Shown: positions 51,769 to 64,000 of the stretch, in pieces
Numbering within the stretch: position 1 is the stretch's first letter
Layout: each line of letters starts with the position of its first letter
Virus record (IMG/VR): IMGVR_UViG_3300020450_001133
Source: a virus
Lineage: Duplodnaviria > Caudoviricetes
DNA length: 64,000 nt
Reading direction: 5' to 3' (one strand)
Notes under the pieces: model-generated
What the model saw: only the letters and a program-made list of their open reading frames with translations
Databases searched by the model: none
What the model was told of the DNA's origin: nothing
Translations under genes and position numbers: made by a program

Positions 51769-52629
51769 CTAATTATCCTCTAATAATTCTCTGTTTACAA
51801 TTTCTTTGTACAGTTCTGTTGCAATACGTTTATGTCCTTTATCGTTTGGGTGCATATCATCTGCACTAACAACATTTCCTGCCATCATGGCACTGAATGG
51901 GTACATAGTCCATCTTTTTCTGTCTATCATATCTCTTAATTGTATTAAAAATGTATTTGGTTTTGTGTTTAATACATTCCACACATGGTCAATACCTCCT
52001 GTAGGTCTTCCCATATGACATATACTAGACATTGATGAAAACAAATATGGTATATTTTTATTACTTAAAAAGTTTTGTATTAACAAAATGTCTTTACAAT
52101 AATTAACCATAGTTTGATGATGATTCATCAAATATGCTTGATACATCTGCGATGCTACTTTAATATTTTTATAATATTCTGTTTGATAACCAAATTTTTC
52201 TGTAATAGTTTTATCGCCATGAGCTTCTCTGGCTTCATGTGGTATCCATACAAGTGGGTGACCAAATTCATCTAATGCCGTGTCTTGTGTTCTTGCTTGG
52301 GCATCATTAACTGAATTTGTAGGTACAAGTCCAAAATACTGACTCCAGTCATCATTCCAAAATTCATATCTAAATGGTGATGTCCATTGTATAACAACTA
52401 AGTCTGGATTATGTTTTCTAACACCTTCTATTGTGGTTCTTGCTATTCTATTGTTACTGCCTCCGCCAAAGCCATAATTAATTGTTTCAATTTTTCCATC
52501 AAAAAGTTCTTCTAGCCTAAAGGGCCAAACATATGGTTGAGGTGGATTAGTTTCTCCTGTGAGGTAATTTTGTACCTCACCGTGTCCATGTGTAAAACTA
52601 CATCCATTTACTAAAACTTTTTTAGTCAT
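51769..52629 (-). CDS. SGNH/GDSL-like hypothetical protein
   Basis: LVNGCSFTHG, GGSNNRIART, DDMHPNDKGH (DxxH). Confidence 0.65.
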   Translation of the reverse strand: MTKKVLVNGCSFTHGHGEVQNYLTGETNPPQPYVWPFRLEELFDGKIETINYGFGGGSNNRIARTTIEGVRKHNPDLVVIQWTSPFRYEFWNDDWSQYFGLVPTNSVNDAQARTQDTALDEFGHPLVWIPHEAREAHGDKTITEKFGYQTEYYKNIKVASQMYQAYLMNHHQTMVNYCKDILLIQNFLSNKNIPYLFSSMSSICHMGRPTGGIDHVWNVLNTKPNTFLIQLRDMIDRKRWTMYPFSAMMAGNVVSADDMHPNDKGHKRIATELYKEIVNRELLEDN

Positions 52630-62006: not shown

Positions 62007-62036
62007 ATTATACTACCATTTCCTTTGAATTGTCAA
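62007..62036 (-). promoter_or_regulatory. sigma70-type promoter embedded in the last codons of the TonB receptor gene
   Basis: TTGACA-N18-TATAAT, then 5 nt, then the uvsW ATG. Confidence 0.6.
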
Positions 62037-63728
62037 CATAATTTGTCTTCCACGATTGTTATAACCTGGAAGTACTTCTACTTCTTCATCTAAGATGTTG
62101 TCTATTGTTAATGCTAAGTCAACATCATTAGCAAAAGTTTTAATGTATCTAAAAGACAAGTTTTGCAAGTCCTCTAATTCTGCTCCGTCATATGGACCAG
62201 GTATTCTTTCAAAATTACCTCTATAGGTAATATCAAATTCATGACTACCAAAGGCTTGATTCCATTTAACAACACCAACATACTTAGGCACTCTTGCTTG
62301 TTCTGTATCTGTATATTTCAGTGTAAGCATAAAGTTACCAAACCATTGCGAGTATCTAATACCTAGTGTGTCGTATGCACCAGTATTGTAATACTTTGCA
62401 TTGTAGTATTCTGTTGTGGTTGTTGTAATTGCATTACCATCTTCATCATAAGTTACAGTTGTAACATCATTACTTCCACCTGGTGCATATTCTATTGCTT
62501 CTTCAAAGTCATATTTGAAAATACTTAACACACCAAATCCTATTTCGTAACCAACACCTTCTTCAGGCAATAAGTCTAGATTTGCATCAACCCAACTATC
62601 ACCATGTAATTCATAAAGTGTAGGTCTTCTATAACTGTTACCAACATTTAAAAAGAATGGACCACTTTCTAAACCAAATCTTAATGCGTTTTGGTCTTCA
62701 TTTCCAACTCTAAAACCAAAGTTGTATTTCATGGCAAAGTCGGCATTAATATTTAAGTATGCACCGTAATTGTCTCTGCTATGTTCTTCATTGTTTAGAC
62801 TTTGATACTTCTCATGACTTGCGTCTACACCATATGCGATTTGCAATTTGTTAGATAGGTTAGTTTGGTCACCAACTCTCAAATAGTCTGTGCTACTTTC
62901 GTTAGCATATGACATCCATTCGCCTGTGTAATAATCTGCTTTGTCATGTGTTCTACCCAATGTAAAATATTCATTGTTTAATGCAATATTATATTTTTCA
63001 CCATCTTGTTCACAATTATTAGACTGATTAAAACTAGAATCATAACAGTTGTCATAATCATAACTGTAATCAGTGTAGTCCATTGTTATCCTAAAATCTT
63101 GTACATCAAAATTTAACTTTGCGTTTCTATTTGTGTACCAGTCACTTTCAGTATTATCATTTCTTACACTATCTTGGTTTATTTCCATTGCAGTATATTG
63201 AAACCATTTTGCAGGTGCAACACTAACCATTTTATGATCCTGTGAACCTAAGATTGCAGTAACACCTTGTTCAATGTTATCTTTAATCAATATAGTACCA
63301 GCAATACTACCACTACCATACACAACACTATTAGCACCAGAAATAATTTTAACTTCTTGCCCTGTTGCTAGTTCATTACCAAAATCATACCATGCACTAC
63401 CAGGCAAGTTTGCTGGTATGCCGTTTTTGTAAACAGCGGTATGTACATTTTGTGCACCACGTTCGTTATATCCTTGGAAAGCACCATAACCACCAGCAGT
63501 CCATGTATGACCGGGTAGTAATGCTCTTATAAAGGAATTACCTTTTAGTGGGTCTGCTTTTATAGTTGTGCTTTGTTGTCCCACTACCACAACTTCTTCT
63601 ATCTCCTCTGCCTGTGCTTTTGGACTTAAACATACTGCTACTGAGAACAATATCATCCATACAAAAGCCGCATACATAGGAGAAAAATTGATATGGAAGT
63701 TCCAATCAATCTTACTTCTATTACTCAT
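62013..63728 (-). CDS. TonB-dependent outer-membrane receptor, BtuB-like
   Basis: Signal peptide ending AQA, TonB box EEVVVVG, plug ERGA..GANSVVYGSGSIAG, C-terminal PGYNNRGR..W. Confidence 0.85.
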   Translation of the reverse strand: MSNRSKIDWNFHINFSPMYAAFVWMILFSVAVCLSPKAQAEEIEEVVVVGQQSTTIKADPLKGNSFIRALLPGHTWTAGGYGAFQGYNERGAQNVHTAVYKNGIPANLPGSAWYDFGNELATGQEVKIISGANSVVYGSGSIAGTILIKDNIEQGVTAILGSQDHKMVSVAPAKWFQYTAMEINQDSVRNDNTESDWYTNRNAKLNFDVQDFRITMDYTDYSYDYDNCYDSSFNQSNNCEQDGEKYNIALNNEYFTLGRTHDKADYYTGEWMSYANESSTDYLRVGDQTNLSNKLQIAYGVDASHEKYQSLNNEEHSRDNYGAYLNINADFAMKYNFGFRVGNEDQNALRFGLESGPFFLNVGNSYRRPTLYELHGDSWVDANLDLLPEEGVGYEIGFGVLSIFKYDFEEAIEYAPGGSNDVTTVTYDEDGNAITTTTTEYYNAKYYNTGAYDTLGIRYSQWFGNFMLTLKYTDTEQARVPKYVGVVKWNQAFGSHEFDITYRGNFERIPGPYDGAELEDLQNLSFRYIKTFANDVDLALTIDNILDEEVEVLPGYNNRGRQIMLTIQRKW

Positions 63729-63757
63729 TCTGTCTCCAGGTTATTAGTTCTATTATA

Positions 63758-63785
63758 ATTATACGTCTTATTGTGGAAAAGTCAA
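63758..63785 (-). promoter_or_regulatory. sigma70-type promoter of the TonB receptor gene
   Basis: TTGACT-N16-TATAAT with a second TATAAT in tandem. Confidence 0.65.
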
Positions 63786-63796
63786 GTTAAAAATGT

Positions 63797-63829
63797 AATA
63801 AAGTGACGCCCGGAAGAACTCCGGGCGTC
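63797..63829 (-). terminator. GC-rich hairpin, probable intrinsic terminator
   Basis: Perfect 10-bp stem GACGCCCGGA/TCCGGGCGTC, followed on the minus strand by an interrupted T-tract (ACTTTATT). Confidence 0.7.
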
Positions 63830-63883
63830 TAAGGTGCTCTCTTGGGGGATGACTAACGTTTGAGCACCAGGGAACCGTTAGCA
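63805..63883 (-). ncRNA. Candidate small RNA: H-type pseudoknot plus 3' hairpin
   Basis: S1 GCTAACG/CGTTAGT and S2 GGTGCTC/GAGCACC are interleaved; an ATAAATA motif sits 6 nt upstream. Confidence 0.55.
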
Positions 63884-63896
63884 ATATATATTTATT

Positions 63897-64000
63897 TTAT
63901 ATTGCACCCTTCATGCAAGTTGTTCTGGCTAATGACTGCCAATTTTTAGGCTCCATCTTCTTAAGGTCTGAAATCTTAAGAACCATACGCAAACTAACTT
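63897..64000 (-). CDS. C-terminal fragment of a gene starting beyond the window (possibly an AAA-type ATPase)
   Basis: Open frame VSLRMVLKISDLKKMEPKNWQSLARTTCMKGAI-stop; SLRMxLKIxDL resembles phage AAA ATPase C-termini. Confidence 0.55.
   Translation of the reverse strand, partial: VSLRMVLKISDLKKMEPKNWQSLARTTCMKGAI

Follow-up and report, generated by a model that had tools for sequence, protein, structure and literature searches.

A 3'-UTR element of an early AAA+ ATPase gene in marine T4-like phages, probably autoregulatory and directed against the gene's own translation start

The element we describe, which lies near the end of a 64,000-nucleotide stretch of viral DNA (the window, i.e. the whole stretch that was analysed), is probably an autoregulatory 3'-UTR anti-initiation (anti-Shine-Dalgarno, anti-SD) element of an early AAA+ ATPase gene, in which an antisense copy of the gene's own initiation region would be carried at the end of its messenger. 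The conservation of the element, the covariation of its hairpin and the co-variation of its 3' site with the 5' site of the same gene are established by the comparison of related sequences. The pairing of these sites inside the cell, its repressive effect and its action in cis or in trans are proposals for which icaR, OppZ/CarZ and hok serve as analogues, both for the direction of the effect and for the choice between cis and trans. The element constitutes a new RNA family, which would work like the few known systems where 5' and 3' UTRs are joined by an anti-SD motif, and which is new for phages.

Results

The phage is a marine relative of T4, carrying a UvsY-like gene, an RNR and DnaB. The gene upstream of the element codes for an AAA+ ATPase of ~345 aa (full length seen in relatives), homologous to T4 nrdC.10 and with matches to phrog_1250 and to AAA Pfam families. 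A sequence-only reading of this DNA had described ATAAATA, a 6-nt spacer, two interleaved 7-bp stems and a strong terminator, and all these letters are present on the minus strand at 63895-63797. The features of the locus are the following:

63897-64000, minus strand: 3' end of the ATPase gene, cut by the window end (from the ORF list)
63899-63897, minus strand: stop codon UAA of the ATPase ORF
63895-63889, minus strand: ATAAATA, a T4-type late-promoter-like motif, with a predicted transcript start at ~63882
63888-63883, minus strand: 6-nt spacer UAUAUU
63882-63876, minus strand: 5' strand of stem 1 (S1), GCUAACG, whose partner lies at 63858-63852
63875-63869, minus strand: loop L1, GUUCCCU, a second conserved C-rich stretch, kept in groups A and B
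63868-63862, minus strand: 5' strand of stem 2 (S2), GGUGCUC
63868-63833, minus strand: whole S2 hairpin, GGUGCUC ... GAGCACC, presenting the putative anti-initiation loop
63861-63859, minus strand: AAA linker
63858-63852, minus strand: 3' strand of S1, CGUUAGU
63857-63845, minus strand: putative anti-initiation 13-mer GUUAGUCAUCCCC, complementary to the ATPase SD / start-codon region
63851-63840, minus strand: loop L3, CAUCCCCCAAGA
63839-63833, minus strand: 3' strand of S2, GAGCACC
63832-63830, minus strand: UUA between S2 and the terminator
63829-63805, minus strand: terminator stem, GACGCCCGG / CCGGGCGUC, in which the terminator scan counts 11 pairs
63804-63797, minus strand: U-rich tail
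63829-63797, minus strand: intrinsic terminator overall, with a GC-rich stem of 9-11 bp, a loop of 3-7 nt and a U-rich tail
63785-63758, minus strand: sigma70-type promoter (TTGACT, 16 nt, TATAAT), outside the element and preceding a TonB-plug-like gene

The interleaving of S1 and S2 would give the topology of an H-type pseudoknot. The 13-mer GUUAGUCAUCCCC occurs a single time in the 64-kb window, where the CUCCCAC-type and TCATCCCC motifs have no second copy either. The earlier claim that the element contains no ORF holds in part: a 38-aa frame with a TTG start (63768-63884) of the ORF list does overlap it, and this frame is disrupted by 1-nt indels in relatives. Two other readings of the locus were rejected, namely recoding by read-through or frameshift (the spacer after the stop codon is unconserved, indels break the frame and the terminator comes next) and a tRNA-like or CCA-end structure (CCA is found in two lineages only).

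The gene to which the element belongs was deduced from relatives gathered in two ways, by the TonB-like protein (46 loci) and by the ATPase gene (80 loci). In the first set, the element is present only at loci that also have the ATPase gene upstream; in the second, the element or a variant of it lies 3' of the ATPase stop codon, regardless of the downstream gene. By this comparison of loci, the element belongs to the ATPase gene and not to the TonB gene. The latter, downstream in the window, is TonB-plug-like (571 aa, 62013-63728, minus strand) and its sigma70 promoter, with 11 of 12 consensus matches, is kept in relatives. A gene for a TonB-plug-like outer-membrane protein is found 3' of the ATPase gene in many lineages (L091, L101, L110, L114, L125).

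Three forms of the element are recognized. Group A is window-like, with S1, S2 and, invariant in all 29 distinct copies, the 13-mer GUUAGUCAUCCCC. Group B has an extra hairpin, P0, followed by GGUUCCCCC and by a hairpin with CCUCCCAC in its loop. Group C has one hairpin only, which starts within or at the coding end, has the stop codon inside it and carries CUCCCAC in its loop. The terminator comes next in all three groups. More distant lineages have a hairpin that begins inside the ATPase coding end and no promoter motif, which indicates that the ancestral form is a 3' UTR element. The sequence-only reading had proposed a self-contained gene for an undescribed phage non-coding RNA of about 80 nt; a conserved structured RNA without Rfam family is indeed present, but these distant lineages, devoid of the promoter motif and with the hairpin within the ATPase coding end, contradict a self-contained gene and make the element ancestrally a part of the ATPase messenger. 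A short stretch, UCGACUGG, is conserved between hairpin and terminator in two otherwise different group C lineages (L101, L106, L107, L114, L119).

Searches for known relatives of the element gave no match. Against Rfam 15, whose families include SAM-II/V, preQ1, fluoride, glutamine, Yfr1 and ribozymes, the whole window gave only two tRNAs at gathering thresholds, and the region 63700-64000, searched with E values up to 10, gave terminator-driven chance matches of 12-23 bits for thresholds of 38-90, in agreement with the earlier reading, which by eye saw no match to the SAM-II/V, preQ1, fluoride, cobalamin, hammerhead or HDV-like consensus. No match was obtained by blastn of the region against GenBank phages, nor in the literature on CUCCCAC and nrdC.10, where nothing on the element was found. 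The IMG/VR pattern scan for group B yielded mostly chance matches in GC-rich contigs.

Taken alone, S1 (-6.8 kcal/mol) and S2 (-10.9 kcal/mol) are energetically ordinary, both being inside the range of shuffled sequences, and the case for both must therefore be comparative. The fold of the whole stretch has a z of -4.1, an outlier status due solely to the terminator, and a nested fold recovers S2 and the terminator only. Across group A (29 distinct close relatives), 99.5% of the cells are paired. The covariation of both stems in homologues, on which the sequence-only reading made its pseudoknot depend, is heavy for S2, where pairing reaches 100% in both groups, with two compensatory pairs in A and three in B, and the equivalent hairpin around the C-rich motif is found in all 69 distinct copies, with 52 arm combinations. 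It is modest for S1: group A has one compensatory pair (G-C to A-U, in six sequences), in three further changes one side alone is altered and pairing is kept, and a mismatch is seen in two sequences; the version of S1 in group B has zero compensatory pairs, and S1 is absent from group C and from the distant types. The terminator combines a GC-rich hairpin, a U tract and compensatory changes (two pairs in group A), as an intrinsic terminator does. On this comparative ground the presenting hairpin (S2) and the terminator are solid, and the pseudoknot stem S1 appears as a lineage-specific addition with modest support.

Three further observations concern the terminator region of group A. The terminator loop is C-rich (AUCCCCU) in many copies and resembles the seed CAUCCCC (e.g. 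L056:2534-2637, L066:2530-2633); the terminator stem GAAGCCCGG/CCGGGCUUC is near-invariant across otherwise diverged phages; and an additional small hairpin, GGUCUAC/GUAGACC, stands between stem 2 and the terminator at L065:2534-2637.

The main observation is the complementarity of the 3' loop with the initiation region of the same gene. For each of 62 distinct gene copies, the region from -32 to +14 around the start codon was compared with the 89 nt that follow the stop codon. The longest Watson-Crick run between cognate sites has a mean of 8.9 nt (range 6-12) in the 62 copies, against a mean of 5.8 nt for shuffled elements, just 0.3% of which reach 9 nt or more, and of 5.5-5.9 nt for non-cognate pairs taken across lineages. 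As a caveat, any strong SD will be matched to some degree by a C-rich loop. Complements of 8-12 nt are found in 59 of the 62 copies, and in every case the run lies in the 3' hairpin loop at one end and over the SD or the start codon at the other. In the window, the match to each of the other 57 initiation regions is 8 nt or less. Two of the genes on its minus strand, starting at 52629 and 20933, begin with AUGACUA(A) and match UUAGUCAU by 8 and 7 nt, respectively, which may represent secondary targets or chance.

At least seven different complementary pairs are observed, each in different lineages, so that the two sites co-vary; these states cluster by lineage and amount to about seven independent events, not to 62. 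Thus, GGGGAUGAC(UAA) is found with (UUA)GUCAUCCCC; GAUGACUAAC, spanning the start codon together with codons 2-3, with GUUAGUCAUC in the copies whose TonB protein is nearest to that of the window (L001); (U)GUGGGAGG with CCUCCCAC(A); and UAGGAGGUU with AACCUCCUA. Among ATPases of ~50% identity, the hairpin loop before the terminator again provides the partner, GGAGGAGCA being found with UGCUCCUCC, GAUGGAGCG with CGCUCCAUC and AAAGGAACAGAA with UUCUGUUCCUUU; a fourth such ATPase sampled gave a weak match. More distant relatives had no 3' UTR or no match, and the cultured T4-likes RB9, phi-Grn1, an Acinetobacter phage, Vibrio K352 and Pseudomonas PAC2 had a plain terminator or no 3' UTR, with no comparable match.

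The 5' end of the window's own ATPase gene is beyond position 64000; the partner of the C-rich loop is therefore not visible from the window letters alone, and was deduced from relatives that have the identical 13-mer. All 29 carriers of GUUAGUCAUCCCC (29/29) have an initiation region complementary over 6-12 nt, and 27 of them over at least 9 nt, the group A loci L150 and L153 matching by 6-7 nt only. The cognate partners of the 13-mer are GGGGAUGAC(UAA) or GAUGACUAAC, with complements of 9-12 nt. The window-specific element had no match in IMG/VR, and a metagenome scan found only close relatives of the L002 type, whose initiation region is GGGGAUGAC. A duplex-energy target scan over the whole window gave no match at a gene start, its best site (3835-3816) being inside an ORF, and inspection by eye of the relatives' loci revealed no pairing between the loop and the SD of the downstream gene.

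The SD itself is placed in a 6-nt loop (GUGGGA or GGGGAU) in most lineages, closed by stems of 3-5 bp that are variable yet paired. Judged from these predicted folds, the SD loop and the 3' loop would face each other in the geometry of a kissing complex. In 8 of 9 cases, the best dimer given by RNAcofold contains the predicted duplex, the gain being -3.6 to -9.8 kcal/mol. In the window-type lineage, stem 1 also uses 6 of the 10 target-pairing bases and would compete with target binding; its 5' strand, GCUAACG, resembles codons 2-3 of the target (ACU AAC). The GUUCCC motif of L1 has no consistent complement in the ATPase mRNA.

A second hairpin, with the conserved loop AAGGG/AAAGG, is present in group A 5' UTRs (L005, L048, L056; ~-55 to -25 relative to the ATPase start), and its stems co-vary (UUAGGGAA/UUCCUUAA in place of UUAGUAAG/CUUACUAA); this hairpin could contact the C-rich L1 or L3. 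Elsewhere, the nrdC.10 homologue of the cultured jumbo Pseudomonas phage vB_Pa-PAC2 (L127; 1127-1172, 2311-2345) has an 8-nt complement, AGUAGCAU, between the SD-AUG spacer and the 3' arm of the terminator, which may be due to chance as ~5% of shuffles reach 8 nt. A pattern scan also found the 13-mer GTTAGTCATCCCC in many viral contigs that are unrelated (L130-L232), on the strand antisense to a conserved coding sequence, in a context foreign to the element.

The last feature to be considered is the late-promoter-like motif. At least nine late genes of the window have ATAAATA, 6 nt and AUG, and the element has the same spacing from the motif to the first base of S1, as had been noticed from the letters alone. 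The sites on the minus strand are 43634, 32616, 30022, 20557, 15161, 11549, 10959, 6200 and 5671; ATAAATA and ATG are 6 nt apart at every site but one, where the gap is 7 nt, and there is no Shine-Dalgarno sequence. This arrangement suggests that the late mRNAs are leaderless, with transcription beginning at the AUG. In group A, 21 of the 29 distinct copies have a TAA[AGT]TA hexamer 4-6 nt upstream of stem 1, exact TAAATA being rare and exact ATAAATA restricted to a few relatives. In group B, 8 of 12 distinct copies have TAAATA in the P0 loop, 5-6 nt before the would-be S1 strand. A late-promoter-like motif is absent from group C and from the distant types. As read from these motifs, a separate late small RNA is plausible but unproven for the window lineage and would not be general.

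Discussion

The model we propose places the two ends of the ATPase messenger in contact. The hairpin (stem 2 in the window) would display the C-rich loop just upstream of the intrinsic terminator, and the loop would pair with the SD / start-codon region of the same gene, some 1 kb upstream. With the SD region itself held in a 6-nt hairpin loop in most lineages, the first contact would be a loop-loop kiss, and the pairing with SD/AUG would then block the binding of the ribosome. The ATPase would be translated mainly during its own transcription, or would be subject to feedback from its own 3' fragment: once the 3' end is completed, or once a stable terminator-bearing fragment has accumulated, the loop would shut ribosome loading. 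By analogy with known systems, the most likely effect of the element is to switch off the translation of the ATPase.

In the window lineage, the late motif would make the last ~85 nt as a separate small RNA, which would shut off the early mRNA in trans; the terminator would be common to the ATPase mRNA and to any such small RNA. Stem 1 would pair the 5' end of the small RNA with part of the seed while CAUCCCC stays free, thereby acting as a mask or a toehold, and would also bury this 5' end. The complete scheme, i.e. a temporal switch in which a late-promoter-driven RNA of ~85 nt, taken from the 3' UTR of an early gene, kisses the SD loop and silences the early mRNA late, with a stem 1 that mimics the first codons of the target and gates the seed by a toehold, is one that we put forward tentatively, as a possibility with somewhat less in its favour than against it. 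If true, lytic phages would have here their first described autogenous antisense timer, one that appears widespread in marine myoviruses.

The closest parallel is the icaR mRNA of Staphylococcus aureus, in which UCCCCUG of the 3' UTR pairs with its own SD (PMC3868564). As in icaR, a C-rich anti-SD motif of the 3' UTR (CAUCCCC or CUCCCAC in the phages) is directed against the SD of the same mRNA, and the consequences expected by analogy would be a block of initiation and double-stranded RNA on which an RNase could act. The phage case differs in that the gene is viral, the 3' UTR is short and the motif occupies the loop of a hairpin placed right before the terminator; a loop holds the SD as well, which gives the kissing geometry, and in one lineage it is the start codon with codons 2-3 that is matched. 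It differs further by its co-variation in many lineages, its possible own promoter and its pseudoknot mask. OppZ and CarZ of Vibrio cholerae are autoregulatory small RNAs derived from 3' UTRs, released by RNase E and dependent on Hfq (PMC7398697). They share with the phage element an origin at the mRNA 3' end, a common terminator and a pairing with their own transcript, proposed for the phages, that inhibits translation and so establishes negative feedback. Unlike them, the phage RNA would be released through a late promoter motif in some lineages, such a motif being absent in others, and its seed is in a loop instead of a single-stranded 5' end. In the tac/fbi fold-back of the hok mRNA of plasmid R1, a 5'-3' pairing keeps the full-length mRNA untranslatable (PMC9841398). 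The long-range pairing between the two ends of an mRNA, proposed for the phages, is the common feature; however, the hok 3' end binds the extreme 5' end, its sequestration of the SD is indirect and its trimming activates the mRNA, whereas the phage loop is directly antisense to the SD/AUG.

The T4 genes e, soc, 49 and I-TevI have a late promoter inside a hairpin that hides the ribosome-binding site of the downstream gene. Group B resembles them by its TAAATA in the P0 loop, and a late transcript lacking the 5' arm would fold differently from the read-through mRNA; unlike in the T4 genes, the strand set free would be that forming stem 1 of a non-coding RNA.

Three other explanations were weighed against the autoregulatory one. 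The first, which we hold for unlikely, is a phage small RNA acting purely in trans, produced from the late promoter or by processing, whose C-rich seed would hit the SD of host or other phage mRNAs in the manner of Yfr1 or RsaE, the ATPase match being secondary. The promoter-like motif at the spacing of the leaderless late genes, a terminator hairpin with U tail that is the usual 3' module of small RNAs and the 7-8 nt matches of the two other window genes that start with AUGACUA(A) all speak for it. However, a host target would not predict the joint change of seed and ATPase initiation region that is seen in at least seven lineage types, and group C and the distant types combine the lack of a promoter motif with a hairpin that overlaps the coding end.

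The second explanation gives the 5'-3' pairing a positive or protective role, either by circularising the mRNA for the recycling of ribosomes or by shielding the SD against an endonuclease of the RegB type, whose target in early mRNAs is GGAG. Cleavage of early SD sequences is known in T4-like phages, the complementarity data apply equally to this proposal, and the stop codon of group C is within the hairpin, which terminating ribosomes would open. The pairing of the SD/AUG is nevertheless expected to block the binding of the 30S subunit, as shown for icaR (PMC3868564), and we give this role only a very small chance.

With the H-type pseudoknot riboswitches (SAM-II/V, preQ1-I/II, fluoride, guanidine-III), the element shares predicted interleaved stems and a length of 50-60 nt, but it has no covariance-model match, no universal stem 1 and no expression platform, and antisense complementarity accounts for the sequence of its loop. 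A ligand- or protein-sensing pseudoknot, i.e. a riboswitch or attenuator gating terminator read-through into the TonB-like gene as the sequence-only reading had suggested, is the least credible of the three and highly improbable: the pseudoknot topology with conserved loops right before the terminator and some group C TonB-like genes that directly follow the terminator without a promoter of their own, and would need read-through, are in its favour, but no Rfam riboswitch is matched even at E values up to 10, the terminator has neither an antiterminator nor any other pairing as its competitor and is followed in the window by a near-consensus sigma70 promoter, stem 1 is missing in many lineages, and the element tracks the ATPase gene, with unrelated genes downstream of it and many TonB-like genes devoid of it.

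In conclusion, the anti-initiation reading accounts for the puzzling invariance of the 13-mer and for the GC island that contains it. The pairing of 5' and 3' UTRs in bacterial mRNAs is known from only a few cases, every one of them discovered experimentally in a single species; the same logic appears here in uncultured marine T4-like phages that form a very large family, with more than 8000 ATPase homologues in public data. The compensatory changes at both sites in at least seven lineages are unusually clear comparative evidence for a long-range RNA-RNA contact, and the lineages together offer a natural collection of orthogonal SD/anti-SD kissing pairs. For nrdC.10, a conserved ATPase of the T4 family, the element provides a testable regulatory handle and suggests that the dose of this protein is tightly limited.
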